Source: Patescibacteria group bacterium (lineage in GTDB: Bacteria; Patescibacteriota; Patescibacteriia; Patescibacteriales; UBA12465). Taken from it: 64,000 nt of DNA. This document shows, one piece after another, positions 32,597 to 63,117 of the stretch (position 1 is the stretch's first letter; each line of letters opens with the position of its first letter). The stretch covers positions 117,995 to 181,994 of the forward strand of contig JBMOHE010000001.1 in NCBI GenBank assembly GCA_049318005.1, written 5' to 3'. The notes under the pieces are model-generated. The model was not told the DNA's origin, did not search any database, and saw nothing but the letters and a program-made list of their open reading frames with translations. Made by a program: the position numbers and the translations under genes.

Positions 32597-32598
32597 AA

Positions 32599-38730: not shown

Positions 38731-38755
38731 AGATTTTTGATTATTTATTATTTTA

Positions 38756-38956: not shown

Positions 38957-39051
38957 AATAGATATGGTTATTTTATTAATTAATTTTATTATAGCAATTT
39001 TAAAAAAGAGGGTCAAATTTGAGATATTTAAACCGCTCTTCTTCAATTTTA

Positions 39052-42000
39052 TTATTTTCTACGTTCTAAAATTTTAATTCTGGCTTCAAGATTATTTATT
39101 TCTTTCTGCTGAGCCTTAACTGCCTCAACTAAAGGAGCAACTAAGTTTCCGTATTGAACAGATTTTATCCCATTAGCCTCAGTTACTAATTCAGGGAAAA
39201 CAGTTTCAACTTCTTGAGCGATTAAACCAACGCTCGCCTTATTATCCGCTTTCCAGTTAAAGGTAACGCCACGTAAATTTAAAATTTTATTAAGCGGATT
39301 TTTAATTGTTTCAATATTTTTCTTTAAGCTACGATCAGAAGTATAAGTAAACGCAGTTGCGCCAACCTCTCCAGCGACCGTTAATTTATATCCTGGAGTA
39401 GTGGTTCCGATTCCGACGTCACCGCCATTAGGATTAATTAATGTATTCTTCCACGCTATTCCATCGTCAATTGATTGAATCATTCCGGCATCAGCCGTAG
39501 TCAAATACCCCAGAGAGATTGATTTAGTATTATCGGCCGAATCGGCGACCGATAAGATCTTTGACATTGCTGGCGTCTCAACATTATTAGAACCAACAAC
39601 TGTCAATGGTTTATCGGGGTTCGTTGTCCCAATTCCAATTCTACCAGAGGAGTTAATTCTCAAACGTTCAAGACCATTCGTATATAAAGCGGTTATACCA
39701 TGAGTAAATGTCCCGGCATTTTTATTTATTTGTCCGATAGCAAGGACGCCAGCAGCGGCACCGGCCATCCCTGGCGTGTAGCCAATCGCAACCTGTTTAT
39801 CCCAGTCATAAGAAGTTCCTAAAAATATCTGACTAGTCCCTGTTGGATTAAATAACCATAAACCAGCCGTTCCACTATCTGAATATATTTTTGAGGCATT
39901 AGCGCCAGCAAATTTCAATCCACCACTACTGTTAACTGGAGTTATATTAACGTCGCCATTAATATCTAACTTCGATGTTGGGTTAGTAACACCAACTCCT
40001 AAATTCTTATTTATGATTACTTTACCGCTGTTTAAATCCGAATAAAAATATCCTCCGCCATAATAAGCTCTATTATTTTGACGGTCCATAACGGCTATAG
40101 TGTAGCCATTATTATCATCATAAATACCAACCTCATCATCACTGTAATTGTTATTATTACCAATAAATAATCCAGCGCCCGTTGAATTAGTATTAGCTCC
40201 GATTACTGAACTACCATATATATAGGTATTTCCCCAGGCGTCAATTCTCATTCTATTTGTTATAGTTCCGCCAGTGCTTGTCGTCCTAAAGTTAAGAGAT
40301 GCATTATTATCAGCTCCTGAATCAAAATATACTTGACCCTGATAATCAGTCGCTGAATTGTTATACAGTTGAAAACCAGCTCCGGAAGGAGTGCCTGTTA
40401 GGGCGGCCGTAGAAGCATAAATTCTTATTGCCTTAGCATTAACGCTACCTAAATTAATATCAACTGGTTGAGCAGCTCCTGTGCCACTTGTATCTAGTTT
40501 AATCCCATCATATGTACCTGCATTATTTTTAATATGTAAAGGTGCTAAAGGATTCGTCGTTCCAATGCCGACTTTACCAGCAGCCGATATTCTCATTTTT
40601 TCCGTACTGCCATCAGCAACTCCGTATCCATAAGAATTTCTTGTCCAAAATGATAAATCGCCATCAGGATACCCAGTGCTAGGATTCCAGGTTGACGATC
40701 TAGAGGAGACTATTTTTCCTGCTGTTGAGTTTGCTGTGTCAATAAAGTTTATTTGACCTATTGTATTATTACTTAAAGCTGTATGAGCGGTGTTGGTGTC
40801 CTGCATTTTAAATACAGGGGAAGCCCCCGATGAAGATCCGCTTACATGTAGTGCTGAACCAGGATTAGTCGTCCCAATGCCGACATTGCCCGTGAATCTA
40901 TCGGCATAAAACATTGGATCACCTCCAACTGATGCATATGGCAACATCTGAATTTTATTTTCATCAACTGTGAAAAATTCCATCGGATTATTATCAAAGA
41001 CACTCAAGCTTCCGGAGCCATCACCTCCACCCAGAGTGAGCATAGAGCTCGGTTCATTTCCAGCTCCTAATCCAAGCCCGAGGTATCCTAACGATGAAAT
41101 TTTAACCTTTTCTTGATTATTAATATTCCAAGAGTAATGAGCGCCACTAGGAATCATGAAATCAAATTGAGTAGGCGAGACTCCTAGGCCATAAACATCA
41201 ACACCAGATTCATATAATTTTAACTTAGCATTTCCGCTAGCTACATTACTATAAGTTCCACCTAATGACATATTTTTAGGGGTTGTGGTTGCGCTAGATG
41301 TTAAAGTTCCTATCTGTAAGTTTGACAAAGGATTAGTCGTTCCAATTCCAACGTTTCCTCCGCCAGAAGTTCCATTCCAAATATTTCCATTTGGAGTTCC
41401 TCCCCAAAGAGAATTACTAGCTACGGTGCTTGTTGAAGTATAATTATTTTTTAGATAAGCAAGTGAGACTGCTTGATCATCATTAACTTGAGTATAATCA
41501 AGTCCACCAATTTGACCGCCACCAACATTAATCGCGTCGCCAGAAGATGGCTTAGAAACACTTAATTTAATACTAGGATTTGTTATCCCGATTCCGACAT
41601 TTCCATCACCTTTAACAATAAAAGCGCTTCCACTGTTAGAATTTTGAACGTTTAAAATATTTGACGAAGGAGTTACTGCTCCGCCTTTTATTAACATGCC
41701 CCATGCTTGAGCGCCGGAATAACTTTGGTTGTCAAACGTAAAAGCATATTGATTGCTAGGATTAGAGACGTTTTGAGCTAATACAACGTGCAATTTTCCA
41801 ACGGGCGCGACTGTTCCAATTCCAACGGATCCCGATGATTGCAAAATCATATTATCCGAACTGGACTTATAAATATAGTTAGTACTATTATCTCCTAAAT
41901 CAATCGCTCCACCTAAAGCCAAAACCTTGGTTATACCAGAAATTGGAGTATTTAGAGTACTACCGATAAATACCAGCCCATTGCCATTTCCAGCGAATCC

Positions 42001-42744
42001 AACATAGCCACTACTACCTCTGAATATCCCAGTACCCGTTTCCCCAGAAAATGTATAAGATGGAGCTGCCGCAGAACCAACAGGAACAGCGACTTGCCCA
42101 CTTCCTAATACTAATTTACTGCCTGGATTAGTTGTACCAATTCCGATGTTACCACCTCTTAAAATAGTTAACCAATCGCCAGCACCCCAAAAGCGAAGAC
42201 TATTGTCAGCGCTGTTATTATACATGCCCCAGTGATTGTTAGTTCCAGCAACACCTTGAATATCCAATTCAGCATTACCACTAGTTTTATATAAGTGTAG
42301 TAATGAGTTTGGATTAGTTATCCCGACGCCGACGTTACCACCACTAATAATTCTCATCCATTCCGTCGTGCCATTATTACTGCTGAAAATAGTTGCGTCG
42401 CCCGTTCCACTCTGAAGGACTAATTGGTTAGAAGCGTTTAATAGTATTTCTCCATCTTCAACTAAATTATTAGAATTTCTCCAAGTTAAGCTACTGCTAT
42501 TACTTAGACCAATACTTCCACCTAACACTTGAAATTTAGTTGAAGGCGTCGTTGTTCCAATTCCAACTGGATTATTATAATAAATTGAGCTGCCGTTGGT
42601 CGTCCATTGACTCCACTGGCTGTTCTCCCCTGTTGGCGAAGTAATATAAGCCGCCTTCGTAAAAGGGACCTTACTTGTCGCCGCAAAGACAAAGAGAAGA
42701 AGTAGAAATATAATTCCCCTCAAATTTATTATTTTTGATTTCAT
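39052..42744 (-). CDS. Secreted giant fibre-like protein (about 1230 aa) with tail-fibre-type 'GNVGIGTTNP' repeats and a C-terminal peptidase-S74 intramolecular chaperone (auto-cleaving) domain.
   Basis: Signal peptide MKSKIINLRGIIFLLLLFVFAA; more than 10 repeats of ..GN(V/I)GIGTTNP..KL.V; C-terminus TSDRSLKKNIETIKNPLNKILNLRGVTFNWKADNKASVGLIAQEVETVFPELV...VQYGNLVAPLVEAVKAQQKEINNLEARIKILE matches the endosialidase/tail-fibre chaperone domain, including the S-D-x-R-x-K cleavage motif. Confidence 0.8.
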   Translation of the reverse strand: MKSKIINLRGIIFLLLLFVFAATSKVPFTKAAYITSPTGENSQWSQWTTNGSSIYYNNPVGIGTTTPSTKFQVLGGSIGLSNSSSLTWRNSNNLVEDGEILLNASNQLVLQSGTGDATIFSSNNGTTEWMRIISGGNVGVGITNPNSLLHLYKTSGNAELDIQGVAGTNNHWGMYNNSADNSLRFWGAGDWLTILRGGNIGIGTTNPGSKLVLGSGQVAVPVGSAAAPSYTFSGETGTGIFRGSSGYVGFAGNGNGLVFIGSTLNTPISGITKVLALGGAIDLGDNSTNYIYKSSSDNMILQSSGSVGIGTVAPVGKLHVVLAQNVSNPSNQYAFTFDNQSYSGAQAWGMLIKGGAVTPSSNILNVQNSNSGSAFIVKGDGNVGIGITNPSIKLSVSKPSSGDAINVGGGQIGGLDYTQVNDDQAVSLAYLKNNYTSTSTVASNSLWGGTPNGNIWNGTSGGGNVGIGTTNPLSNLQIGTLTSSATTTPKNMSLGGTYSNVASGNAKLKLYESGVDVYGLGVSPTQFDFMIPSGAHYSWNINNQEKVKISSLGYLGLGLGAGNEPSSMLTLGGGDGSGSLSVFDNNPMEFFTVDENKIQMLPYASVGGDPMFYADRFTGNVGIGTTNPGSALHVSGSSSGASPVFKMQDTNTAHTALSNNTIGQINFIDTANSTAGKIVSSRSSTWNPSTGYPDGDLSFWTRNSYGYGVADGSTEKMRISAAGKVGIGTTNPLAPLHIKNNAGTYDGIKLDTSGTGAAQPVDINLGSVNAKAIRIYASTAALTGTPSGAGFQLYNNSATDYQGQVYFDSGADNNASLNFRTTSTGGTITNRMRIDAWGNTYIYGSSVIGANTNSTGAGLFIGNNNNYSDDEVGIYDDNNGYTIAVMDRQNNRAYYGGGYFYSDLNSGKVIINKNLGVGVTNPTSKLDINGDVNITPVNSSGGLKFAGANASKIYSDSGTAGLWLFNPTGTSQIFLGTSYDWDKQVAIGYTPGMAGAAAGVLAIGQINKNAGTFTHGITALYTNGLERLRINSSGRIGIGTTNPDKPLTVVGSNNVETPAMSKILSVADSADNTKSISLGYLTTADAGMIQSIDDGIAWKNTLINPNGGDVGIGTTTPGYKLTVAGEVGATAFTYTSDRSLKKNIETIKNPLNKILNLRGVTFNWKADNKASVGLIAQEVETVFPELVTEANGIKSVQYGNLVAPLVEAVKAQQKEINNLEARIKILERRK

Positions 42745-42807
42745 AATATTAACTCTACGAATTATTTCGCAAAAATTACCCAAGCACTAAACTAAATTTA
42801 TCAAAAT

Positions 42808-43542
42808 TTATTTAACAATCATTTTGCCAACTGCGCCTTGAGCTCGGTGATCAAACATTGAAGAATAGAAAGCATATTCACCAGCCTTAGCAGGGGCATT
42901 GAAAGTAATTGACTTTGTTTCACCCTTAGCTAGACCAATAACTACACCACCTAAAGATGGGTCATCGAAACGAAATATTTCTGAAAAAGTAGTTTCATTA
43001 ACATTAGTAACTACTAAAGAAACAACTTGACCACGATTAACTGTAAATGAGTTAGGAGCAAAGCTGCTGCTAGTAACATTTAATTTGATAGCTGATGCTG
43101 GAGCTTCTTTAATATCCATTGGGAAAGATTCTGAAGGAGCTTGTGGGCTTGATGGTTTAGCTGAGTTATTAGCTGTTTGACCGAGCTCAGTTAAAACTTT
43201 ACCACTAGTCATATCGACTGGACTTGTTCCAGGGTTAATAGTCATAACTTTAACTTCTCTAACAGTAGTTGTAGTTGCTCCGTTTGTTGGAGGAACCATA
43301 ACACTAATAGTTTTAGTTGTACTTGTTCCCTTGTCACCAATTACTTCATTAAGTAATTTTTCAGTTTCCTTAGCAGCTTCTGGAGTTTGGTTAGCTAACA
43401 TGTCTTCAGTAACTTTAGCTTTTTCACCAGGAGTTACGCCAACTAAATTACTTGATTTTGGTTTAGTGATTAAAAAGATTAACGCGCCAACGACAACTAC
43501 TGCCAAAACAATAGCGCCGATGATTTTAGAATTTTTGTTCAT
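42808..43542 (-). CDS. Membrane-anchored protein with a C-terminal cupredoxin-like domain lacking the Cys ligand.
   Basis: N-terminal TM; C-terminus FTVNRGQVVSLVVTNVNETTFSEIFRFDD...GEYAFYSSMFDHRAQGAVGKMIVK resembles the plastocyanin/amicyanin (Y-x-C-x-x-H...M) region with C replaced by S. Confidence 0.5.
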   Translation of the reverse strand: MNKNSKIIGAIVLAVVVVGALIFLITKPKSSNLVGVTPGEKAKVTEDMLANQTPEAAKETEKLLNEVIGDKGTSTTKTISVMVPPTNGATTTTVREVKVMTINPGTSPVDMTSGKVLTELGQTANNSAKPSSPQAPSESFPMDIKEAPASAIKLNVTSSSFAPNSFTVNRGQVVSLVVTNVNETTFSEIFRFDDPSLGGVVIGLAKGETKSITFNAPAKAGEYAFYSSMFDHRAQGAVGKMIVK

Positions 43543-43609
43543 ATTTTTTTAATTATTTAATAAAGTTTTATCTTTAACTTTATTTTTAATTTATTATTAT
43601 CTATTAAAA

Positions 43610-46600
43610 TTATAACACGAACCAAGAAACTACTCCAGCCTCTGTTCTATTACAGAATATATAAACTGAGTTATGCGCACTCTTAAGTTCAAATGTAGCT
43701 ACTCCAAGTATTTTTGAATCGCCCACTGGATCAATAATTATTTTATTAATTGATGAAGCACTACCACTTTCATCAACAACGATGTAGAACTTCCCCGCAG
43801 CAGTACAATTAGGAATATTCAAAGTATTAGCACCGCTTAGAGAGGTATAACCAATAATTGAGTCCGTCGAAGAAGCAGTAATCGTCCCGCCAGCACCAAC
43901 TACAGAACGATGACTTAAAGTTAACTCTGAATATTTTGGATTAAAATTACTATCAAGATAGCTCTTTGAAACTGCTTCATCGTTTGTTATTGGAGTTAAA
44001 TTAAGTCCAGTTAATCTCCCGCCATTAACTCTCAAAATTTCACCTGTCCAACCGCCGCTAATAGCATCCCAAGCTCCACCAGAAAGACTAAGTCTAACTC
44101 CTGGAGTAGTTGTTCCAATTCCGACGTAACCAGAGCTATCAATAAGTAACTTACTAGTCCCATTAGTAGAAAAATCTAAACTTGAATTATATTCAAAAGC
44201 TCTATCGCTGATTTCAAAACCACCAACTTGCATTACGCCGGCCGCATTAAAATTAACAATAATTAATGGTTTAATATAACGCGTTCCGACTGGAAATTGA
44301 TTTGAATTAGTACCCTCACCTTTTATTTTATTATAATACCAAGCTCCAGTTGAAGCCGGGTTAGCGGCACTAGCAATAAAATAACCTCTAGTTCCACCAT
44401 TACCAGCGATAGCAACCCCATCTTTATCATAGGCAGTATATCCAGCATAAAAAACACCCGTGCCCGAAACTTTCGCTGCCCAAATTTTTCCGTAATAAGT
44501 TACATTTGGGTCAATAGGAATAAGTTGATCAATCACATATCCGCCCCCACTAGTTGTATCGAATTGATGAACTTTACCGGTTGGAACAACTGCTCCAGCT
44601 GGAGCGTCAACTATAGTTATGCTTGCCGTCGTAGACCAAACTTCTGGAAGCCAAAAATTTGTTCTTGTTTTCCAGGCGTCAGCTGAGATGGCAATTAAAT
44701 TTGAGCCTGAAGATCCACCAACGCTAGTTCTTAAATAACCGCCAACTAATCTAAAATCTCCATTCGAATCTATTCTAACTTTTTCGATGCCATTAATATT
44801 CCAAGAATATCCGGCATTAGCTGGCGCCATAAAATCAAACTGATTAGCCGACACGCCCATGCCATAAAAATTTACTCCATTATCAAATAATTTTAATTTT
44901 GGGTTAGCGCCGGCGACACTACTATAAGTTCCACCTAAAGATAAAGCTAATGGAGTTATGGTCGCCGCTGTTGTAGTAGCGCCAATTTGTAATTTTGAGA
45001 GAGGGTTCGTTACCCCAATACCGATATTGCCTGAATTAGCGCTCCACATGTCGCCAGTAAGAGAGCCTGCCCAAAATTTTGTCGTAGTTGAGTTGTAGTT
45101 ATTTTTTAAATAATAGAGAGAAACAGCTTGATCATCATTAATTTGAGTTAGAGAGAGCCCGCCAATCTGACCGCCACCAACGTTTATCGTGTCGCCAGAA
45201 GAAGCTTGAGAAATGCTCAGCTTAGTATTTGGGGTAGTCGAGCCAATGCCGACATAGCCATTATCCTGAATAGTAAATAAATCTGCTATGACTCCTGCCG
45301 TATCCTTAGCTATTCTGTATTGCCAACCAGTCCCATCGGTCCCAAATGTTTGACGCACACTAACCGGACTCAAGGATACACTTCCGAGTAACTGTCCGGA
45401 ATGAATAGAACCCACAGTTAAAGCTCCGAAAGTTATATCACCACTTGTGTGTAATTTTGTTTTTGGATCAGTTACTCCAATTCCGACACTACCTTCAACA
45501 ATTAGTCCAGAAGTCGGAGCCGCTATTGCTCCATAAGTCGCACCTATAGAAGCGTTACCTAAAACACCTAATTGAGATAGTGGTTTAATAGCACCTATCC
45601 CAACCTTACCACCCAAGAAAACAGCGTTTCCTTCAGCTGACAAAGAAAAAGGACCCTTGCCAGATCTCTGACCGTTAAAAATTTGAACGTTAGCTAATTT
45701 AGCAGTTGTTTCTCCTGATTGCGGGGCTGTAGCAGTTATTCTAACCCACTTCCCTGAACCACTGATGACACTACTCTTATAATATAAAGCCGAGGTATAG
45801 CCAGTAACATCATCAACAGTTGTCCAAGTAACGCCATCCGAACTGGCCTCAACTAAAAAACTGGCTGGTAACTTCGCTCCTCCTCCATCCGGATAATTAT
45901 GAACATTGGCCGCCGTAAATGACATGCCAGCATAAGTCCACCAACCGCGAGTATTAAAAGTAATGGTTGCAGGAAAGCTAGGAATATTCCAATAGCCTGA
46001 TCCATTTTTAGCAGTTGGACCACCATTTACTAAAGTTCCAGCAGTAATAGTTATGTCAGCCGCTTGAGCAACTTCACTTAAACCAGCAATTTCAATAATA
46101 TTACCAGCCACGATACTAGCATTAACGCCGTCATTAGTCCCAACCTCTAATTTTACTCTCGGGTTCGTTGTCCCAATTCCAACATTACCAGCAAGCGGAT
46201 TTAGAAGAAGGTTTGTTCCATTGCCTACTAAATAACTATAGTTAGTTCCCTCGCCCAATCTTATTCCGCCAGTCGCCGCTACTCCATTAGAGCCAAATGC
46301 GCTTAAGGCATTAGGAGAAAGTAAAACGCGAGAGCTAGCTTGATATAAAATATTTAGAACATCATTATTGGCTCCACTTTTTATAATAGTATTATTAGAT
46401 GTGCTTGTGCCGATTATAACGCTGCCAGTGTTAGCGTTCCACATATCACCAGCAAGTGAGCCTTTCCAGAAACTAGTTGTTGTGGCATTATAATTATCCT
46501 GAAGATAGGCAAGAGAAACTGCTTGATCGCGAGAAACCTGAACACTATTAAGTCCGCCCACTTGACCACCAGCCACATTAATAACTTGGTTAGAAGTTGT

Positions 46601-47350
46601 GGCAAATTTAAATTTAAAATCAGGGTTAGTTATTCCGATACCAATATAATTATCAGAATTTATAGTAAATGCGGAAACACTTTGGCTACTTTGTTTAACA
46701 GAAGAACCCGCCGCTACGCCTGAATCATAATCTAATTTAAGAATAGAAGCTGACCCGACGCAGCTATTAGAACAAGCATCAAAATAAGTACCACTTACAG
46801 GACACGACTTAACTGAGACACAAGCCGCTTCAGAGACAGTACTGGTGTTTCTTGATGAACAAATTAAATAACCTAAGCCATTAGCGCCACCAGTAGTAGC
46901 ACAGGAAGAACAGGTGTCGTAAGTGCCGCAAGCTGCAACATAATTAGAACAGTTAGGGATAGCCGTTCCGGGATGAGTTGCTTGGCAAGTTACATTTACT
47001 GGCGAGCTTGAATAACCACTGTCACATTTAACGTAAGTGCCCGCCGTACAAGACGTACAAGTTCCACAATTATCCCAAGCCGAACAACCAGGTAAGGCTT
47101 GCAACTGAGGGGCAGTTTGACCCTCCGAAGTACAGCGATTACTTATAGCAGCTTGAGTATTACAATGCTCAGACAAAGAACCAGTATCTCCAGTACAATA
47201 ATAACTTCCTGAGTCACAAGAATATCCAGATCCATTTCCAGAGCTACAAACTAAAGCCAAGGCTGATATCGGATTATATGCAAAAACAAAAAAACCAAAT
47301 AAAAAAATGGAAAAAGATATTCTTATGTAATTTCGAAACATGTCTTTCAT
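43610..47350 (-). CDS. Secreted giant fibre-like protein (1246 aa): Cys-rich N-terminal region plus GIGTTNP-type repeats, with a unique C-terminus.
   Basis: Signal peptide; a roughly 200-aa N-terminal region with more than 30 Cys; repeated ..GNVGIGTTNP/..GIGVTNP..KL.. modules; the shared junction motif SGDTINVGGGQIGGL..TQINDDQAVSL.YL. Confidence 0.75.
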   Translation of the reverse strand: MKDMFRNYIRISFSIFLFGFFVFAYNPISALALVCSSGNGSGYSCDSGSYYCTGDTGSLSEHCNTQAAISNRCTSEGQTAPQLQALPGCSAWDNCGTCTSCTAGTYVKCDSGYSSSPVNVTCQATHPGTAIPNCSNYVAACGTYDTCSSCATTGGANGLGYLICSSRNTSTVSEAACVSVKSCPVSGTYFDACSNSCVGSASILKLDYDSGVAAGSSVKQSSQSVSAFTINSDNYIGIGITNPDFKFKFATTSNQVINVAGGQVGGLNSVQVSRDQAVSLAYLQDNYNATTTSFWKGSLAGDMWNANTGSVIIGTSTSNNTIIKSGANNDVLNILYQASSRVLLSPNALSAFGSNGVAATGGIRLGEGTNYSYLVGNGTNLLLNPLAGNVGIGTTNPRVKLEVGTNDGVNASIVAGNIIEIAGLSEVAQAADITITAGTLVNGGPTAKNGSGYWNIPSFPATITFNTRGWWTYAGMSFTAANVHNYPDGGGAKLPASFLVEASSDGVTWTTVDDVTGYTSALYYKSSVISGSGKWVRITATAPQSGETTAKLANVQIFNGQRSGKGPFSLSAEGNAVFLGGKVGIGAIKPLSQLGVLGNASIGATYGAIAAPTSGLIVEGSVGIGVTDPKTKLHTSGDITFGALTVGSIHSGQLLGSVSLSPVSVRQTFGTDGTGWQYRIAKDTAGVIADLFTIQDNGYVGIGSTTPNTKLSISQASSGDTINVGGGQIGGLSLTQINDDQAVSLYYLKNNYNSTTTKFWAGSLTGDMWSANSGNIGIGVTNPLSKLQIGATTTAATITPLALSLGGTYSSVAGANPKLKLFDNGVNFYGMGVSANQFDFMAPANAGYSWNINGIEKVRIDSNGDFRLVGGYLRTSVGGSSGSNLIAISADAWKTRTNFWLPEVWSTTASITIVDAPAGAVVPTGKVHQFDTTSGGGYVIDQLIPIDPNVTYYGKIWAAKVSGTGVFYAGYTAYDKDGVAIAGNGGTRGYFIASAANPASTGAWYYNKIKGEGTNSNQFPVGTRYIKPLIIVNFNAAGVMQVGGFEISDRAFEYNSSLDFSTNGTSKLLIDSSGYVGIGTTTPGVRLSLSGGAWDAISGGWTGEILRVNGGRLTGLNLTPITNDEAVSKSYLDSNFNPKYSELTLSHRSVVGAGGTITASSTDSIIGYTSLSGANTLNIPNCTAAGKFYIVVDESGSASSINKIIIDPVGDSKILGVATFELKSAHNSVYIFCNRTEAGVVSWFVL

Positions 47351-47385
47351 GTCTTTATTATATAATAAAAAATAAAAAAATAATA

Positions 47386-52263: not shown

Positions 52264-52292
52264 ATTAAAACTTTATCTTTATTTTATTATTT

Positions 52293-58200: not shown

Positions 58201-58664
58201 GCAAGACAACTGGCTCCACTATTACAAAGAGTAAAATTACTATTCGTACAAGTCTGACAAGTATTTGTAGTTGAACAATCAGCTACGTAGGTTAAACAAT
58301 TAGCGATCGGAGATGTTCCGCTATAGGCCGGGACACAACTTGGCGGAGTACTATAGGTTCCGCAAAGTGTGTCCGCGCCATCACTCCTAGTTATACAAGA
58401 CGAGCAAACGCCGCAAGTATCAACCGACGCGCAACCATTTATATTAATTGTTGCTGGAACTAATCCAGTACAAAGACTAGTCGCTAAACATTTAGCAGCA
58501 CCAGATCCAGGAGCGTTGGTACAATACCAATCGTTTCCGCAACCGATACCAGTTCCACTATCATGCTTACATGTATACTCCAAAGCAGCCGCCTGATTAG
58601 AAGCAGCTAAAAAAATACCGAATATCAGCGAGAAAAGAAATAGAGTTGTGCGCTTTGATAACAT
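52293..58664 (-). CDS. Secreted giant fibre-like protein (2123 aa), the largest member; Cys-rich N-terminus, more than 15 repeat modules, and the family C-terminal Cys domain.
   Basis: Signal peptide MLSKRTTLFLFSLIFGIFLAASNQAAA; repeats of INVGGGQIGGLASTPTR(S/K)DMAVPLGYL(Q/E)ANY; C-terminus ANTICSNTVASSSHVCTSYEILNTI...WISNGPPGF..NDCMGWT...CYNSRNIACCK. Confidence 0.75.
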   Translation of the reverse strand: MLSKRTTLFLFSLIFGIFLAASNQAAALEYTCKHDSGTGIGCGNDWYCTNAPGSGAAKCLATSLCTGLVPATININGCASVDTCGVCSSCITRSDGADTLCGTYSTPPSCVPAYSGTSPIANCLTYVADCSTTNTCQTCTNSNFTLCNSGASCLANRAAGAVTNCASYNQCAANQPCTSCTAGNALCAENDSCKTDVNNCAILLSSGGSCSTNLCSTCKNSNYTKCSSSNICIANKTCPSGQTFDPCAPASNYCTGTANSLKIGYDSLRTDNFLFNSSLALPSLTIPSSGYIGVGITNPNFKLHISSSSDEVINIGGGKIGGLDLTPLNNDQAASKYYVDNNFLSKEASSSLGWLLSGNTLTSDNNWLGSINDWDVSFRTNNIERMRILKGGNIGIGTSTSNNTIIKSGNDNDVLNILYQSSSRVLLSPNAYSAFGTAYGSNGSAGIRLGDGTNFSYLVGNGTNLLLNPVTGNVGIGTTNPLAKLQVEGNIMLAAGSGTLGSGNYRAIGIPYNNTNWTGGGANIQFWQGGNNANSNYMTFNTNDSGVSSGERMRLTETGRLGIGTTAPGAKFEVASSTAKLLFDPSGPSISAPNSTEINLQANGQNIFRGLDNWNQTWSDSVVASYFQVGRSGGNTAFSAYSGSTFNRLAFITNKFQVTNNSGSITPPTNFFQIDYNNTNLFSVQSTGYVGIGSSTPNYKLSFATTTSEVMNLGGGQIGGLASTPTRNDMAVPLGYLKDNYSATSSSFWGGSLGGNIYSANTSNVGVGTTNPKYGLEVQKSNIGIASTTASLDLSNAPGYYFDDASWYYAEGYRLVSSKSDNSFAIQQKAPLLGAINTRLFIKNDGNVGIGTTNPGVKLDVTGSIRTSNQLISTVAAGTAPFSVISSTTVTNLTANYLGFGSVGSAPSSSPFAKLTAGIIVLPEFGAESGAITIRGWNSSYYSWQIIGNNTPWSRPELYFRTGPDGSWGTTFKLWHSGNLTNNLSTSSVVKWNGSSLANSVLYDNGTNIGIGSTTPSVKLSFGTSTVEVINVGGGQIGGLASTPTRSDMAVPLGYLQANYNATSSSFWGGSLGGNIYSANTLNVGIGTTTPASRLQIGSVGSTGYSVSNGLAFGDGTRAGALNVDSSGTTLYSSTNLILSPGTTEALRILANGNVGIGTTTPQAKFHVSGDDEPLSDSYSGVAFIGAGTSKVQIGYSTATTPGYGWISATKNPSTWSNLVLMPNGQGNVGIGTTTPSRLLDVNGIMRISNYYSEYYNNGTYAGKIGAGYWVTTPGNSNDMSLITPGSFYVGTGGNAVPTNFVFKNDGRFGIGSSTPNYKLSFATTTIEVINVGGGQIGGLASVPLNSDQAVSLGYLQANYNPTSTSFWAGNLSGNIYSANTSNVGIGTTTPGARLHIAVPTTGTKLIIDDSYTTNGKWGFAVGIPSVNDTTFRLRHESSNLDVLSALMNGNVGIGTTTPSQLLTVGNNNQFTVSSAGQVSMASYLYGTGSSNVNRFVFNNSGPSYMGISGGSAAGNINSIINLGYTANPSTYLTPVLSVSDNGSVGIGSSTPSIKLSFATTTIEVINVGGGQIGGLASTPTRKDMAVPLGYLEANYTSTSTAVTTSLWGGSQSGNIYSNNGANNVGIGTTTPDVKFQVYGTTGRIATFGSVGASTALATPVNVSFGSTYGNSTPGSVNNLKWDLFTSASSGSRYGIGMSSNLMEFQSGPNGGLGFFVNQGTEAMRILSSGNVGIGTTDIAAKLDVRNLLSTSTPALSLLGGGTYGSGYQMAWGNYSKLSQSSSGMNYITWGAYNDGATWRRSYGGAVAGLVNLQIGNGNYFSIQTDSQASPNLPSWTDVLTVNGTNVGIGTTNPLSQLQVSGVGLASFTGTTKGLQNLEYTENTINHYSAIDFQTSYAQTSFRNPAARVAMKLTPVGSLLQFGTSNSWASGITNTAMTIDYNGYIGIGTTTPDRRLSITGFDGTTGDILTVNGGRIRGLNLTTIYPDEAVSRSFLESYVSEATSTISSVPKFRGVTTQLYTGNMGGYLAANTICSNTVASSSHVCTSYEILNTINSDTLTIATSSMWISNGPPGFTSNSNDCMGWTSTGASDYGAIWHKDATNGQGYGSLTGCYNSRNIACCK
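57480..57760. repeat. Copy 2 of the ~270-nt shared block.
   Basis: See 51255-51535. Confidence 0.7.
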
Positions 58665-58702
58665 GTATTTATTTTATAATAAAATATATAAAAACTAATA
58701 TA

Positions 58703-60673
58703 TTAATTACAACAAGCGAGCCCCATAAGCTTATCACAAGTTCGAAGTAGCCCTCTCCCCTTAGTGTATCCTAAATCCGTACCTTCCCAGTATGTTCCAT
58801 AATTAGGAAAGGCTTCAGTTGTTGTATCCAATGTTCTTGCGTCGCAATCATTAGCACTAGTTGTGTATCCCGGAGGACCATTAACTATCCAGGCATTTCC
58901 TTTTGGCATAGTTAATCCAGCCGCAATAGAATTTAACATTTCAAAAGACGTACAAACATGAGCCCCGCTACCATACTGAGTACTGCAAATTGTATTAGCT
59001 CCATCATACCCTCCCTGATTTCCATCATAAGCTAAGGTTGTCGTACCAACATATTTTGAGACACTTGAACTTGAAACGACTGCTTTAGTTGCAAAATTAG
59101 AATCAACGTAATATTTAGAGGTTGCCTGATCATTGTTTAAAGGAGTTAAACTTAGCCCGCCGATTGAGCCCCCTCCAACGTTTATTACTTCCGCGCTGCT
59201 TGAACTAATACTTAATCTAACCGAAGGGCTTGAAGAAGAAATACCAACAAAACCATTTTGATTTATTCTAAAGAAATCTAAAGTGTCGCTATTATTTCTA
59301 ATTACAAATGGGGAGTAATCAATACTACTTACAATTCTTAAACCCTCAGTACTTAATGGAGGGTTGATTTGAAGTTTAGCGGCTGGGGTTGTTGTACCGA
59401 TACCAACGTTGCCGCCGTTAAGATAGCTCCAACCATTGGCGTTTATATACACGTTTGTTAAATTTGAAGCATTTTGTAAAGCTAAAATATCGGCACTTAA
59501 AGCCGAATAATTAGTTCGACTATTAGAAAAATCATAAGTATAAAGATAATTTTTCACTCCACCACCAAACAAATAAGTTGAGCCACTAACTGGGGATATA
59601 CGTAGTTGCCCAGAGGCGTTAGAAATAAAATCTACCGAAGTAGAAGCATTGCCATCGTAAGTTAACCTAATTTTATTATCCGTGCCAGAAATTGTTAATT
59701 TAGCAGCTGGATTAGTCGCTCCAATCCCAATATTTCCGCCCTTAAGAATTCTCATTCTTTCTATGTTGTTTGTTTTAAATAAAAAATCATAATTATTAAT
59801 TGAACCTAACCAGGAAGTATCACTAGTTAAAGTATTCCCCGATAATAACCATCCCAAAGACGAGCTCGCTTCTTTTGATAAAAAGTTATTATCAACATAA
59901 TATTTTGAAGCCGCATGGTCGTTATTAGTCGGCGTTAAAGCTAGTCCTCCAATATAACCCCCTCGAACATCAATAAGCTGATTACTCGAAGAAGCAAATT
60001 GAAATTTATAAGACGGGCTAGTTGTGCCGATTCCAATATAATTATCTGGACTAATATTAAAAGTTGGGATAAAAAATAAACTTTGCTTAACGGTCGCGCC
60101 TGACGTTAATGAACCTGAATCATAATCTAATTTAAGACTTGGAGCCGAGCCTACACATTCACAAGTTGATTCGTTCCATGTTTGATAACTAGCGCAAGTA
60201 ACATTCTGACATTCATAAGCATTAGTATTTGATTTACATAACTTCAAGCTGCCACTACAAGTTTTACATTTTTGATCACCGCAATAATTATAATCCGTAC
60301 AATTAGCAACCGTAATCTGATGAGTAGCTTTTTCCGTACAAGCAGTAGCTGGAGTATTTGGATATGTCGCTGAGCAAAAAGCATAAGTGCTAATACAGGC
60401 AGTACAGGAACCGCAAGCATCAATCGTAGAACAAGGAGAAACAACGCTAATACTATTAGACGGACAAAAAGCTGAAGTCATCACCGCTCCAGTCCTACAA
60501 GTCCCACCGCAATAATATTGCTGAGACGGCTCACTCGCACAAGCAACCGCTGAAGGACTGGCCGTTGGACAATAAGTTAAAGCCTGCGCCGAAGAAGCGG
60601 AGATTACTCCGATGAAAATAAAGATTAAAGATAGGGGAAGTAAAAACTTCTTCATAATAATTATCGACAACAC
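58703..60673 (-). CDS. Secreted fibre-like protein (656 aa) of the same family, with the C-terminal Cys domain.
   Basis: Signal peptide; Cys-rich N-terminus; blocks almost identical to parts of the 47386 and 52293 genes; C-terminus ANTICSTQYGSGAHVCTSFEMLNSI...WIVNGPPGY..ANDCDARTL...CDKLMGLACCN. Confidence 0.75.
   Translation of the reverse strand: MLSIIIMKKFLLPLSLIFIFIGVISASSAQALTYCPTASPSAVACASEPSQQYYCGGTCRTGAVMTSAFCPSNSISVVSPCSTIDACGSCTACISTYAFCSATYPNTPATACTEKATHQITVANCTDYNYCGDQKCKTCSGSLKLCKSNTNAYECQNVTCASYQTWNESTCECVGSAPSLKLDYDSGSLTSGATVKQSLFFIPTFNISPDNYIGIGTTSPSYKFQFASSSNQLIDVRGGYIGGLALTPTNNDHAASKYYVDNNFLSKEASSSLGWLLSGNTLTSDTSWLGSINNYDFLFKTNNIERMRILKGGNIGIGATNPAAKLTISGTDNKIRLTYDGNASTSVDFISNASGQLRISPVSGSTYLFGGGVKNYLYTYDFSNSRTNYSALSADILALQNASNLTNVYINANGWSYLNGGNVGIGTTTPAAKLQINPPLSTEGLRIVSSIDYSPFVIRNNSDTLDFFRINQNGFVGISSSSPSVRLSISSSSAEVINVGGGSIGGLSLTPLNNDQATSKYYVDSNFATKAVVSSSSVSKYVGTTTLAYDGNQGGYDGANTICSTQYGSGAHVCTSFEMLNSIAAGLTMPKGNAWIVNGPPGYTTSANDCDARTLDTTTEAFPNYGTYWEGTDLGYTKGRGLLRTCDKLMGLACCN
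59115..59415. repeat. Second copy of the ~300-nt near-identical block (partner 47795-48095).
   Basis: See partner; the alignment runs without gaps (constant offset 11320). Confidence 0.75.
59725..59990. repeat. Copy 3 of the ~270-nt shared block.
   Basis: See 51255-51535. Confidence 0.7.
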
Positions 60674-63117
60674 GCTAACTTAGCGGCTTCATTACAATGT
60701 TTAACTAATCCACGTCCTTCTGGGTATTGGCCGGTAGGTCCCTGCCAAATAGCCCCATAGGTAATGGTTGATTCGTTACTCGTTCTACCATCACAATCAT
60801 TAGCAATTGCTAAATACCCCGGAGGGCCAGTAAATATCCAAACGTCACTAGTAGGAATAGTACTACTCGCAACTAAAACCGTATTTAACATTTCAACTGA
60901 CGAACAAACATGATAGCTTGAAGAAATTGCTTTGCAGAGACCATGAGCAACCGTGTAACCAGTTCCTGCGGCGCCATTGTTACCAGCATAAGACACGGCC
61001 GTTGAAGTTACATATTTTCCTATTCCCGCCCCACTCACACCGCTATTTAAATACGACTCAAGATAAGCTTTATTAACAACATCTTCATCGCTAATAATAG
61101 AGCTTGTCGCAACCCGCATTTTTATTAAACCAAGTACATCAAGTTTTGAAACCGGAGTAGTTGTTCCTATGCCGACATTACCAGCGCCAACCACACCGTT
61201 ATAAATATTTCCGTTAATGGTTCCGTTCCAAAGTGAGGAGCTAGCCAAAGTAACTGTGTTTGAATAATTGCTCTTAAGATAATAAAGTGAAACCGCCTGA
61301 TCATCGTTGACCTGAGTAAGAGAAAGTCCACCAATCTGACCGCCGCCAACGTTAATAACGTCTGCCGTAGTTGAAGAAAGACTTAATTTATAATTTGGGG
61401 TACTTGAGCCGATTCCGACGTTACCGCCACCGCCTAAAATTAACTTTTGGCTAGCTGGAGTTACACTAGTTACGCCATATATTAAAGCCGAGCTTCTCCC
61501 AAGAGCCTCAGTTGTTCTATCTAAACTGTCAATTATTAATGAGTTCGAACCAGTTTCATATCTTCCTGCAGTATGCCCAATAAAAATATTATTAGTTCCG
61601 GTTGTTAAACTTGCGCCAGTAAATGCACCTAATAAAGTATTATAGCCCCCAGTTAATCCGGCAACAGAATTGTAACCAGCTCTATAACCAATTGCTGTGT
61701 TATAAGCTGAATTTGTATTTATTAACTGCAAGGCGTTCGTGCCTAAAGCCGTATTATTCATAACGCCTGTTTTTGCGGATGAATTATAACCAGAAAGATA
61801 ACCAATAAAAATATTGCTACCGCCAGAACTATTTGTTGAGGCATGATAACCAATATTAACAGAAGCTACGCTGACGCCGGTAAATTGTCCGCCATATGTT
61901 CCAATAATTACATTTGCGCCACCGGTAGTCCCGTTGGCAGCTTGATAACCAATAACGGTATTATCATTCGCCACGGTAAAACTTTGACCAGCCGAGGAAC
62001 CGATTAGAGTGCTTCTTCCGCCTGTCGTTACCGCACCACCAGCGCCAATACCAAAATATGTAGCATTAGCATCTAAAGTCATCGCTTTAATACCCCCGAC
62101 CGTAATATTATTTGAGGTGGTATTCGGCTTAAAATATACAATGCCCGATGAACCGCTTAAAGATGAATCGGCAGCCGTATCAACATAAGTTGTATTGATA
62201 TTGTTGGCAATAGTCGTTAATAAATATTCCTCCCATCTTCCCCCGCCTGCTTTTACGCGATATATTTTTCGGCCCGTAACCCGAGAATCACTAGAAACGG
62301 GAATAGTTAAAGTAACAGTATTATTTCCAGCCGTGGTAGTAATTTGTGTCGCCGAATAAACTATGTGTGTCTCACCAAGAGCGGTTATAAAAGTAACTCC
62401 ATACCAATGAGCGCCAGTATCAACTGATCCGCCAGCACTTACTACGCCAGTCGGAGCAATTGGGTCAGGTACGGGATAAATATCAAAACCCATCCCAGAA
62501 CGTACTGCGCTAACAGTAGTAGTTCCTATAACATCTAATTTGTAGACTGGCGCTGTTGTTCCAATTCCAACATTCCCTAGCCCATTACTTCCATTCCAAA
62601 TATTTCCATTTAAAATTCCTCCCCAAAGAGTAGTCGAACTAGCACTATAGTTTGACTGAAGGTAGCCAAGTGAAACTGCTTGATCAATATCAACCGGAAC
62701 AGAAGCAAGCCCACCAAGCTGTCCGCCATTAAGATTAAGAACTTCGCCCGTTCCGCCGTCAATATTTAATCTTATTCCGCCGGTCGTGGTTGTTCCTATT
62801 CCGACATATCCAGAAAAGTTACCAATGAAGTTTGTCGCCCTAATTGTTCCATTAACATCAAGCCTAGTTCCGTCAACCGGAGCAGTCGTATTAATACCGA
62901 CCGGCCCAACTAAACTAACCGGCAACCAGGTATTAACAAAGTCAACGAGTAAGCCATTCCATTCGACCGCTTCTAAAGTTCCGCTATGAGGCTTATCATA
63001 AGTCGAAGTTGAGTTTACCGCTGAGGCATTTTTAGCAGTAAATATAAATAAAAAAGACGCGCAAATAACAAAAGCGCTTAAAATATTTTTTATTTTTTGT
63101 CCTCGTTTAAGGAACAT
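60661..63117 (-). CDS. Secreted fibre-like protein (818 aa) of the same family; first gene of the array.
   Basis: Signal peptide; GNVGIGTT modules; C-terminus HGLCKAISSSYHVCSSVEMLNTV...WIFTGPPGY..ANDCDGRTS...CNEAAKLACCR. Overlaps the next gene by 13 nt. Confidence 0.75.
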   Translation of the reverse strand: MFLKRGQKIKNILSAFVICASFLFIFTAKNASAVNSTSTYDKPHSGTLEAVEWNGLLVDFVNTWLPVSLVGPVGINTTAPVDGTRLDVNGTIRATNFIGNFSGYVGIGTTTTGGIRLNIDGGTGEVLNLNGGQLGGLASVPVDIDQAVSLGYLQSNYSASSTTLWGGILNGNIWNGSNGLGNVGIGTTAPVYKLDVIGTTTVSAVRSGMGFDIYPVPDPIAPTGVVSAGGSVDTGAHWYGVTFITALGETHIVYSATQITTTAGNNTVTLTIPVSSDSRVTGRKIYRVKAGGGRWEEYLLTTIANNINTTYVDTAADSSLSGSSGIVYFKPNTTSNNITVGGIKAMTLDANATYFGIGAGGAVTTGGRSTLIGSSAGQSFTVANDNTVIGYQAANGTTGGANVIIGTYGGQFTGVSVASVNIGYHASTNSSGGSNIFIGYLSGYNSSAKTGVMNNTALGTNALQLINTNSAYNTAIGYRAGYNSVAGLTGGYNTLLGAFTGASLTTGTNNIFIGHTAGRYETGSNSLIIDSLDRTTEALGRSSALIYGVTSVTPASQKLILGGGGNVGIGSSTPNYKLSLSSTTADVINVGGGQIGGLSLTQVNDDQAVSLYYLKSNYSNTVTLASSSLWNGTINGNIYNGVVGAGNVGIGTTTPVSKLDVLGLIKMRVATSSIISDEDVVNKAYLESYLNSGVSGAGIGKYVTSTAVSYAGNNGAAGTGYTVAHGLCKAISSSYHVCSSVEMLNTVLVASSTIPTSDVWIFTGPPGYLAIANDCDGRTSNESTITYGAIWQGPTGQYPEGRGLVKHCNEAAKLACCR

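Follow-up and report, generated by a model that had tools for sequence, protein, structure and literature searches.

Cellular relatives of phage fibres are known in the mosaic adhesive trimer (MAT) proteins of Bdellovibrio bacteriovorus, a superfamily of phage-fibre-like trimeric adhesins that serve this predator as prey-recognition fibres (Caulton et al. 2024, Nat Microbiol, PMC10769870). MATs combine a conserved N-terminus and a beta-helical shaft with tips that form a mosaic, among them S74, C-type lectin and TNF-like ones, and the capping loops of the shaft follow the consensus V-G-G/N-pi-x-x-P-x-x-x-L. The same paper raises a possible interplay with type IV pili and cites T5 pb1 and the K1F endosialidase as S74-type phage examples. 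Such phage tail fibres and tailspikes (PF13884; e.g., 6F45) end in an intramolecular chaperone with a Ser-Lys motif and have a variable receptor-binding distal end. A looser parallel is Giant1-5 of Apilactobacillus kunkeei (PMC12863079), very large secreted surface proteins of a small-genome symbiont whose genes likewise follow one another and occupy much of the genome; this likeness is one of gene arrangement, and no evidence of homology was obtained.

The locus described here comes from an NCBI metagenome-assembled genome (MAG) of a Patescibacteria bacterium with a tiny genome. Within the 64,000-nt stretch analysed (the window), six large open reading frames (ORFs), all on the minus strand, which the preliminary description had left unspecified, and here named fibres A to F (818, 656, 2123, 1625, 1246 and 1243/1230 aa), form an array of 24,066 nt, or 37.6% of the window, as the preliminary description had proposed (about 38%). 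The array lies between a minor-pilin cluster and ligA (Table 1). A tiny-genome bacterium spends 24 kb on six secreted fibre proteins with interchangeable tips. Since the organism is a Patescibacterium, the earlier guess of an episymbiont-type lifestyle is reasonable.

Table 1. Features of the fibre array and its surroundings, numbered from the first letter of the window
Feature	Position	Strand	Remarks
PilX_N-like minor pilin	63267..63671	-	last gene of pilin cluster, directly before array
Promoter-like site P1	63193-63165	-	TTGGCA-17-TG-TATAAT; 11/12 positions, extended -10 TG; consensus match only
Fibre A, 818 aa	60661..63117	-	signal peptide; 4 GIG modules; 2 junctions; central Gly/Asn-rich repeat region, aa ~330-530; 6-Cys head 60664-61038
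Fibre B, 656 aa (650 from ATG)	58703..60673	-	probable ATG 60655; signal peptide; Cys-rich N-domain about 60149-60577 (20 Cys); 4 GIG modules; 2 junctions; 6-Cys head 58706-59080
Fibre C, 2123 aa	52293..58664	-	signal peptide; Cys-rich N-domain about 57879-58583 (32 Cys); 14 GIG modules; 6 junctions, giving ~300-aa super-repeats; 6-Cys head 52296-52670
Fibre D, 1625 aa	47386..52263	-	signal peptide; Cys-rich N-domain about 51664-52182 (25 Cys); 14 GIG modules; 4 junctions; 6-Cys head 47389-47766
Fibre E, 1246 aa	43610..47350	-	signal peptide; Cys-rich N-domain about 46751-47254 (20 Cys); 7 GIG modules; 3 junctions; two globular insertions, aa 477-548 (weak F5/8 type C match) and aa ~880-1060
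Fibre E, distinct 2-Cys C-terminal tip	43613-43942	-	
Cupredoxin-fold protein, 244 aa	42808..43542	-	membrane-anchored; PF13473, E 4e-9
Fibre F, 1243 aa from TTG (1230 aa from ATG)	39052..42783	-	probable ATG 42744; signal peptide; 13 GIG modules; 1 junction; no Cys-rich domain
Fibre F, C-terminal Peptidase_S74 intramolecular chaperone domain	39055-39339	-	PF13884, E 4e-17; SDRSLK at aa 1149
Promoter-like site P2	39016-38988	-	precedes small TM genes
Two small paralogous single-TM proteins	38494-38847 and 38756-39046	-	downstream of F; probable ATGs 38956 and 38730
12-bp palindromic hairpin	38450-38476		after small TM genes

The shafts are built from the module "GNVGIGTT.P..KL" (GIG), which occurs 56 times across the six proteins compared with 1.9 (maximum 8) in 300 residue shuffles; ORF segments elsewhere in the window, 12,845 aa in total, contain only three regex matches to it. 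A second motif, INVGGGQIGGL..P...DQAV..YL, always stands between one shaft segment and the next shaft segment or the tip; this junction is found 18 times and never in the shuffles. Both elements had been noticed beforehand, and the "dozens" of modules then ascribed to each protein are correct for the sum but not for single fibres, which hold 4-14. Direct matches to MAT crystal chains were obtained with fibre D (Bd2133, 8OND, E 3e-7; Bd3182, 8OJN, 1.7e-6; Bd1334, 8OML, 1.2e-3), fibre F (Bd2133, 2e-5) and fibre E (Bd3182, 1.1e-3), and the GIG part of profile A3 matches Bd2133, Bd3182, Bd1334 and Bd2439. In the alignment, 'GNVGIGATAPTAKLEV' of Bd2133 stands opposite the array's 'GNVGIGTT.P..KL', and by this sequence evidence the GIG module corresponds to the MAT capping-loop motif.

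The array therefore represents a cellular phage-fibre-like adhesin type already known from Bdellovibrio MATs and not a new kind of protein; the earlier suggestion of an undescribed domain architecture fails, since the MAT superfamily was described in 2024 (PMC10769870) and four of its crystal chains are matched by sequence. Like MATs, the array proteins are cellular, bear signal peptides, measure about 0.6-2 kaa, come as many paralogues per genome and have a beta-helical shaft with one conserved and one variable end; a conserved Cys-rich end with a variable tip end follows the logic of MATs. There are also differences. Patescibacteria is not among the MAT-bearing lineages of that paper (Supplementary Table S3, PMC10769870), and the array proteins lack the conserved N-terminal domain (~130 aa) found in Bdellovibrionota MATs; in its place, fibres B-E have a rare Cys-rich domain and fibre A an 'EWN' motif. 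A junction motif not seen in MAT structures divides the shaft into segments, and the genes form one tight 24-kb block that adjoins a pilin cluster and encloses a conserved cupredoxin-fold gene.

Resemblance to phage proteins is strong, as had been stated for these cellular proteins at the outset. The tail-fibre families phrog_9942 and phrog_18345 match the fibres at 1e-38 to 1e-46 (fibre C against phrog_9942, E 1.7e-41), indicating shaft kinship with S74-type phage fibres; fibre A matches the tail spike phrog_4636 (7e-4), and fibre F matches 21 tail-fibre PHROGs and the phage long tail fibre distal subunit 6F45 (8e-8). Together with the S74 domain and a match of Thermus phage distal tail fibres to one shaft segment, this could suggest that the array is the tail-fibre operon of a prophage or tailocin, or what is left of one, and that its products belong to a virus-like particle rather than to the cell. 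We regard such an origin as extremely improbable. Neither the window nor loci L001-L005 showed a capsid, terminase, portal, tail tube, sheath, baseplate or integrase gene (Pfam on neighbours and precomputed Pfam), in agreement with the preliminary description, and in five diverged genomes the array sits amid the same succession of housekeeping genes (YbeY, FemAB, LigA). Each of the six proteins carries a Sec-type signal peptide, a feature not normally present on phage fibres; five of the six are without S74, and the N-termini are not baseplate- or tail-attachment domains. Furthermore, the shaft is matched by only 2 of 50,697 phage records, and no relative of the junction unit was found in IMG/VR. 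The locus is cellular, not prophage; it is flanked by a minor-pilin cluster and ligA in a Patescibacteria MAG and its gene order is common to four diverged relatives.

That order (FemAB, YbeY, minor pilins, fibres, cupredoxin, fibres, S74 fibre, small ORFs, LigA) is kept in four other metagenomic contigs (L002-L005), whose proteins are only 40-56% identical and whose number of fibre genes varies. The pilin cluster comprises a 487-aa secreted protein, three N_methyl pseudopilins and the PilX_N-like gene, and runs past the window end. The array starts 149 nt past this last gene, which closes four pilin-like genes; the adjacency recurs in five of five syntenic relatives, and the first fibre after the pilins always has the N-terminal 'EWN' motif (in fibre A, 'YDK..GTLEAVEWN.L..DFVNTW'). 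Given also the possible interplay raised for MATs, the fibres might be accessory adhesins of a type IV pilus, PilY1-like, encoded after fimU/pilVWX-type minor pilins and presented by or cooperating with the pilus tip complex. This is very unlikely in our view: housekeeping genes of unrelated function also belong to the conserved block, so that synteny alone may explain the adjacency; just 2 of 10 other loci from Patescibacteria, and none of 70 from other phyla, have prepilin ORFs close to their MAT-like genes; a search for a PilY1/PilC domain gave no match; and the fibre signal peptides are ordinary Sec, not class III. In addition, a separate promoter-like site, P1, heads the array 48 nt upstream of the gene A ATG. 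The sigma-70-like candidate reported there is indeed the top match within 58-64 kb, where the total number of matches is not above chance.

A signal peptide in every member, as first described, was recovered by our own heuristic on the N-termini (2-4 K/R, a 12-residue hydrophobic core, AXA-like sites). By the same heuristic, none of the six has a second hydrophobic or TM segment, and no sortase signal, lipobox or C-terminal anchor was found in the fibres. The 30-40 N-terminal Cys once attributed to all members proved to be 20, 32, 25 and 20 in B, C, D and E, respectively, while A and F have none there. In the domain of B-E, 18 aligned Cys are invariant. The domain is rare (34 representatives among 1.84 billion); in all 34 it follows the signal peptide immediately (aa ~25-240), and nearly all of them continue with a GIG shaft and one of three non-S74 tips. 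A DsbA-like thioredoxin gene near the array (33201-33932) speaks for the reading proposed below.

At the distal end, at least three tip types occur within the one array: a 6-Cys head (A-D), a 2-Cys tip (E) and S74 (F), and further types (Fib_succ_major and others) are carried by the fibres of relatives. The earlier expectation of a chaperone or lectin-like tip agrees with S74, with its SDxxxK motif, in F and with the 6-Cys head, for which a C-type-lectin/endostatin-like fold is predicted (fibre D head model, pLDDT 86.7). This head has no Pfam match and no PDB sequence match. It resembles the trimeric stalk proteins with C-type-lectin-like heads (collagen XV/XVIII endostatin, collectins, tetranectin, the Legionella Lcl C-terminal domain) without detectable sequence similarity (Pfam, PDB sequence), and differs from them in its 6-Cys pattern with a vicinal 'ACC(K)' C-terminus and in lacking EPN/QPD or WND calcium/sugar motifs. 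The same head is found on P0197, a collagen-repeat protein, and on small membrane-anchored proteins, which fits a distal head carried by trimeric stalks. The tip of fibre E is common to P0004, P0006, P0011 and one L002 protein. As far as these tools show, the 6-Cys head family, the Cys-rich N-terminal domain and the junction motif are undescribed; modelled as a monomer, the junction region scores poorly (pLDDT 67, pTM 0.37), and the model says nothing on junction structure.

Homologues of the fibres are numerous (at least 923, some already named 'tail fiber domain-containing protein' at NCBI), and MAT-like shafts were found at 168 loci in many phyla, including many non-predatory, non-symbiotic ones, so the fold alone does not imply host attachment. 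This breadth in free-living phyla, the high gene dosage and a composition in which Gly/Ser/Thr/Asn make up 43% of residues would suit general envelope or matrix components, such as a fibrous coat, an S-layer-like lattice or a biofilm scaffold. We consider this unlikely, as the predicted head fold is lectin-like and diversified tips with conserved N-termini form a pattern usually seen in receptor-binding proteins rather than in structural lattices. The array is probably a repertoire of secreted, phage-tail-fibre-like trimeric host-binding adhesin fibres on the MAT plan. By homology we infer trimerisation, surface display and binding; surface retention and disulfide bonding are presumed, and a role in host attachment can reasonably be inferred.

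In the proposed mechanism, each fibre would be exported via its Sec-type signal peptide, with a cell-proximal N-terminal domain, disulfide-rich in B-E and replaced by a different conserved motif in A. This would be followed by a long shaft of beta-helical segments with the recurring capping-loop equivalent, cut into cassettes by the junction in this lineage. An exchangeable tip would close the shaft: the lectin/endostatin-like head on A-D or, in E, a different small domain supplemented by two lateral beta-sandwich-like insertions. By analogy with other S74 proteins, the chaperone of F would drive trimer formation before releasing itself by cleavage at Ser1149. The various tips would recognise distinct glycans or proteins on the surface of the host cell(s), resulting in a multi-specificity attachment set for a small-genome episymbiont.

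The mosaic character of the array is visible at the DNA level, where different paralogues have cassettes of 74-84% identity in common (B/D pre-tip, B/C/D post-Cys, C/E). The cupredoxin-like gene noticed earlier is confirmed by its Pfam match and is kept at the same position in all syntenic loci; the window protein has no Cys and thus misses the type-1 copper thiolate ligand, and some orthologues keep C..H..M. The two tiny TM-protein genes first counted with the array are present, but lie just outside it with a promoter-like site of their own. By position they may be part of the fibre system, and small ORFs occupy the equivalent place in L004.

Six large open reading frames on the minus strand, referred to here as fibre genes A to F, are arranged head to tail between positions 39052 and 63117, in agreement with the preliminary description of this DNA. 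The intergenic gaps within the array are about 5-70 nt. The promoter candidate that had been proposed for the head of the array was also recovered, as a TTGGCA-17-TG-TATAAT site (11/12) located 48 nt 5' of the first ATG. It is the top sigma-70-like match within 58-64 kb; since the number of such matches in this interval does not exceed the shuffled expectation, only the position and quality of the site are notable.

Fibre genes and other features mentioned in the text, in window coordinates
Feature	Coordinates	Strand	Product or remark
Fibre A	60661-63117	minus	818 aa
Fibre B	58703-60673	minus	656 aa; 650 from likely ATG
Fibre C	52293-58664	minus	2123 aa
Fibre D	47386-52263	minus	1625 aa
Fibre E	43610-47350	minus	1246 aa
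Fibre F	39052-42783	minus	1243 aa from TTG; 1230 from likely ATG
Promoter-like site, array head	63193-63165	minus	
PilX_N-like gene	63267-63671		
Cupredoxin-like gene	42808-43542		244 aa
Promoter-like site, small TM genes	39016-38988		
Two small TM-protein genes	38494-39046		
Palindromic hairpin	38450-38476		
DsbA-like thioredoxin gene	33201-33932	minus	
tRNA-Ser	33089-33174		
Tandem 33-nt units	32163-32228		
Reverse transcriptase (RT) gene	30869-32080	minus	403 aa
Four-gene RT operon	27290-32080	minus	
Inverted repeat, arm 1	2995-3253	plus	
Inverted repeat, arm 2	26342-26600	minus	
Type IV pilus cluster (PilB/PilC)	20216-26049	minus	
Gene for Lys/Glu/Asp-rich protein	8833-13911	minus	1692 aa
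SAM riboswitch	4115-4218	plus	RF00162
Gene downstream of riboswitch	4299-5288		329 aa

A signal peptide had been claimed for every member, and all six N-termini are indeed Sec-like, with 2-4 K/R, a hydrophobic core (mean Kyte-Doolittle 2.5-3.4) and AXA-like sites; the assignment is heuristic and not made with SignalP, and a heuristic scan found no further hydrophobic segments beyond the N-terminus. The shafts contain a short repeat, the GIG module (of the type 'GNVGIGTT.P..KL'), and a longer junction motif. Explicit regular expressions counted 56 GIG modules ('G.VGIG...P..KL') and 18 junction motifs across the six proteins, whereas 300 residue shuffles gave a mean of 1.9 and a maximum of 8 for the former and a mean of 0 for the latter. 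The rest of the window contains three GIG matches in 12,845 aa of ORF segments. The expression "dozens of modules" is thus correct for the six-protein total but not for the single proteins, which carry 4-14 each.

The shafts are related to those of the mosaic adhesive trimer (MAT) fibres of Bdellovibrio bacteriovorus, which has 21 such fibres with signal peptides (PMC10769870). MATs combine a conserved N-terminal domain of ~130 aa with an intertwined trimeric beta-helix shaft, in which a capping loop with the consensus V-G-G/N-pi-x-x-P-x-x-x-L recurs (PMC10769870). Their tips are variable: 13 have an S74 domain with SDxxxK, and 8 do not, including tips with TNF-like, beta-sandwich and C-type-lectin folds (PMC10769870). 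MATs are displayed on the predator surface, and glycan binding has been demonstrated for one member (PMC10769870). Among PDB sequences, fibre D matched Bd2133 (8OND, E 3e-7), Bd3182 (8OJN, 1.7e-6) and Bd1334 (8OML, 1.2e-3), all three entries being crystal structures of MAT fibres; the Bd3182 fibre is ~55 nm long. The MAT entry 8OL4 was also among the matches of the array's sequences. Fibre F matched the distal subunit of a phage long tail fibre (6F45, 8e-8, in the S74 region) and Bd2133 (2e-5), and fibre E matched Bd3182 (1.1e-3), the match to its C-terminal part being confined to the GIG module there. The central repeat region of A had no PDB sequence match. The matches centre on 'G.VG(I/V)G...P...L', and HMMER alignments place the GIG module exactly on the MAT loop (e.g., 'ERMRI...GN(L/V)G(L/I)G(T/A).AP(T/S)..L.V'), so that the module can be identified as the capping-loop unit of MAT/S74 beta-helices. 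The phage tail-fibre-like character described earlier is borne out by C, D and F, which match the PHROGs families phrog_9942 and phrog_18345 at 1e-38 to 1e-46. Pfam and NCBIfam searches of the six fibres gave only Peptidase_S74, in F, and a weak discoidin hit, in E. Like MATs, A-F have signal peptides (heuristically assigned), the capping-loop motif of beta-helical shafts and variable C-terminal tips. Their homology to MATs, together with the S74 domain of F, suggests that they would assemble as trimers.

The surroundings of the array are cellular. The rest of the window consists of ordinary genes, including a PilB/PilC/pseudopilin type IV pilus cluster, a two-component system, GatA and a DsbA-like thioredoxin, and it also holds a tRNA-Ser and a SAM riboswitch; an NAD-dependent DNA ligase (LigA) lies directly 3' of the array. 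Upstream, the contig L001, which overlaps the window end, carries FemAB and YbeY, followed by the gene for a secreted protein of 487 aa, three N_methyl pseudopilin genes and, already within the window, a PilX_N-like gene. The same order recurs in four metagenomic contigs (L002-L005): FemAB, YbeY, a 451-487-aa protein, pilin-like genes, one or more fibre genes, cupredoxin, more fibres, an S74 fibre, two small ORFs and LigA. Orthologous proteins of these loci share just 40-56% identity, and the loci differ in how many fibre genes they have and in how long these are. No capsid, terminase, tail, baseplate or integration genes were seen among the neighbours in the window or in L001-L005. Given the housekeeping order shared across five genomes and the lack of virion genes, the array is a chromosomal locus kept within the lineage and not a prophage; the preliminary description, which took the proteins to be cellular, had likewise seen no adjacent baseplate or tail genes. 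A prophage or tailocin origin of the fibres, contradicted by this context, by the synteny and by the Sec-type signal peptides, is extremely improbable, and the prophage reading was rejected on the grounds of context and synteny.

It is important to note that the N-terminal domains are not uniform. A Cys-rich N-terminus with 30-40 Cys had been attributed to every member; four members possess such a region (B with 20 Cys, C with 32, D with 25 and E with 20), and it is missing from A and F. In B-E these Cys-rich stretches are homologous to one another and align collinearly, 18 Cys columns being invariant; they are composed of units such as 'NC..Y..C....C..C......LC', whose cysteines may form disulfides. 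HMMER, run exhaustively against 1.84 billion representative proteins, found only 34 carriers of this domain at E <= 1e-3. In all 34, the domain lies at residues ~25-240, right behind the signal peptide, and nearly all of these proteins combine it with GIG shafts and a non-S74 tip of one of three types. Fibre A begins instead with 'YDK..GTLEAVEWN.L..DFVNTW', which also marks the first fibre gene after the pilins in L002-L005. Unlike Bdellovibrionota MATs, A-F lack the N-terminal domain of that group: a profile built from three Bdellovibrio/Bacteriovoracaceae fibre genes (loci L015, L011 and L059) of relatives of strain HD100, not from HD100 itself, reached a best score of 0.8 bits in A-F, compared with E 9e-23 for the fibre of an independent Bdellovibrio locus (L052). 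The two groups therefore have in common the logic of a conserved proximal and a variable distal part, while the proximal domain itself is different.

The junction motif has a regular structure. In 18/18 cases it is preceded by a GIG module of the form 'G(Y/F)VGIGS(S/T)TP.YKLS', and ~23 residues later 'INVGGGQIGGL..(T/V)P....D(Q/M)AV(S/P)L.YL..NY' follows, after which either the shaft restarts ('W.G...GNIY.AN..NVGIGTT') or the tip domain begins. Outside its GIG part, the region had no PDB or Pfam match in profile searches, and a single-unit scan of IMG/VR, which requires exact peptide words and is of low sensitivity, found no relatives. Among the best 120 homologues, the GIG module is universal (median 17 per protein), and the junction motif is confined to the closest relatives (5-10 proteins). 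The monomer model of the region (pLDDT 67, pTM 0.37) is unreliable, so the structural claim is limited to a short predicted helix at 'LGYLQAN'. DNA cassettes with 74-84% identity are common to different paralogues, namely to B and D before the tip, to B, C and D after the Cys domain, and to C and E. The position of the junction at cassette borders fits a module boundary of a mosaic family.

At least three types of tips are found at the distal ends. Fibres A-D end in a domain of ~120 aa that has six invariant Cys. Its signature is '..SHVC...E.LN......WI..GPPG....NDC.G.T.....G..W.....G.G.L..C......ACC(K)', and the columns that do not vary comprise Y, 6 C, H, E, W, GPP, DC, G and W. This 6-Cys head had no Pfam or PDB sequence match. 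A profile search returned 78 homologues, most of which are stand-alone proteins of 145-220 aa with an N-terminal membrane anchor; fragments of fibres and one protein with a collagen triple-helix repeat also occur among them. The AlphaFold2 model of the head, based on an 80-sequence alignment, is confident (pLDDT 86.7, pTM 0.84) and has a C-type lectin-like fold; in Foldseek comparisons with viral models, only weak C-type-lectin and DUF1566 matches were obtained. Sequence inspection found neither of the canonical Ca2+/carbohydrate motifs (EPN/QPD and WND). As judged from the predicted model, the head is a new sequence family inside the C-type-lectin-like fold class, and it forms the terminus of a stalk, an arrangement also seen in collectins, endostatin and Bd2740. 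The tip of E is a separate small domain, which is common to three homologous proteins (P0004, P0006 and P0011) and one L002 protein; E also carries two inserted globular regions. Fibre F alone contains Peptidase_S74 (PF13884; E 4e-17, 62.7 bits against a gathering cut-off of 22), with the catalytic Ser-Lys motif SDRSLK at aa 1149, and its alignment with 6F45 covers the S74 region. By its sequence, F is an S74 intramolecular chaperone protein and a candidate autoprotease. Further tips occur in relatives, including a 'RLIGRRFDW..WPTKA.DQ' domain, a 'G.DFAEEF...VLVNLQ' domain and Fib_succ_major.

The fibres belong to a large group of proteins. A full-length search found at least 923 homologues at E <= 1e-5, many of them 1.5-2.8 kaa long and many with S74, from Patescibacteria (Pace-, Roizman- and Campbellbacteria), Margulisiibacteriota and Flavobacteriales; those with a name in the source are annotated either as "tail fiber domain-containing protein" or as "beta strand repeat-containing protein". 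With a Bd2133 shaft fragment as the query and one genome per species, 168 loci were confirmed across many phyla, including several Patescibacteria classes; the fragment was reconstructed from HMMER alignments, the best identity was 32-46%, and the HD100 locus was not among the matches. Only two cultured-phage records, both of Thermus phages, matched a 455-aa shaft segment. MATs have been listed in other predators (Oligoflexia, PVC, Micavibrio, FCB and Omnitrophica) but not in Patescibacteria (PMC10769870), and a literature search of incomplete coverage found no report linking MAT or tail-fibre-like proteins to Patescibacteria. The domain composition had been considered undescribed. This does not apply to the class, which is already described, widespread and partly annotated, so that the surprise is limited; as far as the present searches show, it holds for the rare Cys-rich N-domain, the head without a Pfam family and the lineage-specific junction.

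The locus is real and coherent and is best viewed as encoding MAT-like, phage-fibre-derived adhesin fibres in a Patescibacterium. It is distinguished by a different and rare Cys-rich N-domain, a Pfam-less C-type-lectin/endostatin-like head, a lineage-specific junction and a conserved array layout. From homology, domain order, the predicted fold of the head and the context, we consider it likely that A-F are a repertoire of secreted MAT-like trimeric fibres that bind partner-cell surfaces. The conserved N-terminal domains would be directed towards the cell, on which the fibres would be retained, and the diversified tips would bind surface structures of the partner cell as their ligands. Diversified lectin-like tips are hard to reconcile with a non-specific fibrous coat or matrix, which we regard as improbable. 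Still less probable are PilY1-like fibres coupled to a pilus. This reading is attractive in that the adjacency to a minor-pilin cluster is invariable in this lineage, and the gene position after minor pilins is comparable to that of PilY1; however, the conserved block also holds unrelated housekeeping genes, the array has a separate promoter-like site, and Pfam detected the C-terminal beta-propeller domain of PilY1/PilC in none of the fibres. In addition, prepilin ORFs occur near MAT-like genes in only 2/10 other Patescibacteria loci and 0/70 loci of other phyla.

Host recognition by ultrasmall Patescibacteria is little understood, with type IV pili as the main factor implicated so far (PMC12206443; PMC11880426; PMC9894109). 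The array offers testable candidates for host recognition by CPR bacteria, namely six fibres that carry three or more types of tip; it occupies a sizeable share of a presumably small genome and follows the plan of Bdellovibrio prey recognition. If the tips bind host surfaces, host range could be predicted from metagenomic tip sequences, the Pfam-less head and the Cys-rich domains would become defined families, and the MAT concept would reach from predators with an outer membrane to episymbionts without one. A more far-reaching proposal, which we consider rather doubtful, is that such arrays are host-range determinants of the lineage. The MAT-like repertoire would have acquired a disulfide-rich anchoring domain suiting an envelope without an outer membrane, and its assembly or presentation would involve functional coupling to the adjacent minor-pilin module and a Cys-less cupredoxin-fold protein; swaps of tips and cassettes at the junctions would retarget the symbiont to new hosts.

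The cupredoxin-like gene reported within the array lies between E and F (PF13473/Cupredoxin_1, E 4e-9). Its product has no Cys at all, so the type-1 copper ligand of the Cys/His/His/Met set is missing (FYSSMFDH...GKM), and it is unlikely to be a blue-copper redox protein in this genome; C..H..M is retained in some of the L004 and L005 orthologues. Retention of the fold seems to serve a non-redox function, which may be assembly or anchoring. The DsbA-like thioredoxin (Thioredoxin_4, E 8e-14), ~5 kb from the array, is a plausible candidate oxidase for the extracytoplasmic cysteines of the fibres. The two small TM-protein genes exist but lie outside the interval assigned to the array in the preliminary description, and they have their own strong promoter-like site (TTGACC-17-TG-TATAAT) just past the stop codon of F. 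Between them and ligA, a perfect 12-bp palindromic hairpin (AAAAGCCCTGC...GCAGGGCTTTT) could be a bidirectional terminator.

Several other features of the window were observed. The four-gene operon on the minus strand encodes an RT, an ABC_membrane-domain protein (569 aa; 26-nt overlap with the RT gene), a PLDc_2 protein (411 aa) and a 200-aa protein. It is conserved in L002 (16994-21768, 40-53% identity), where it lies between fibre genes with a second RT upstream. The RT is similar to defence RTs of the group II/UG26 type (PADLOC RT_UG26, E 9e-28) and the PLD protein to DrmC (E 8e-17), and the operon may represent a defence system of an undescribed, RT-based type. The 500-nt non-coding stretch immediately 5' of the RT gene, beside the tRNA-Ser, holds two tandem 33-nt units (97% identical) that might belong to a non-coding RNA of this system. 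With an RT 7 kb from the array and C-type-lectin-like heads in the fibres, the heads were considered as targets of a diversity-generating retroelement (DGR); this was rejected, as blastn (word size 8) of 26000-33300 against the whole window found no TR/VR-like pair. The PilB/PilC type IV pilus cluster of the window, which is separate from the pilin genes beside the array, encodes a PilB-like ATPase, a PilC-like platform, a GspH-like pseudopilin and two more N_methyl pilins. It also encodes a 492-aa protein in which a prepilin-type N-terminus (KKSGFALLEV) is fused to LVIVD beta-propeller repeats, a large "pilin-propeller" and possible tip adhesin. A 259-nt inverted repeat (67% identity) lies inside ORFs of 121 aa and 126 aa, which are probably diverged paralogues. 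The 1692-aa Lys/Glu/Asp-rich protein has no signal peptide, Pfam hit or similarity to the fibres, and the SAM riboswitch (52 bits) lies upstream of a 329-aa gene.
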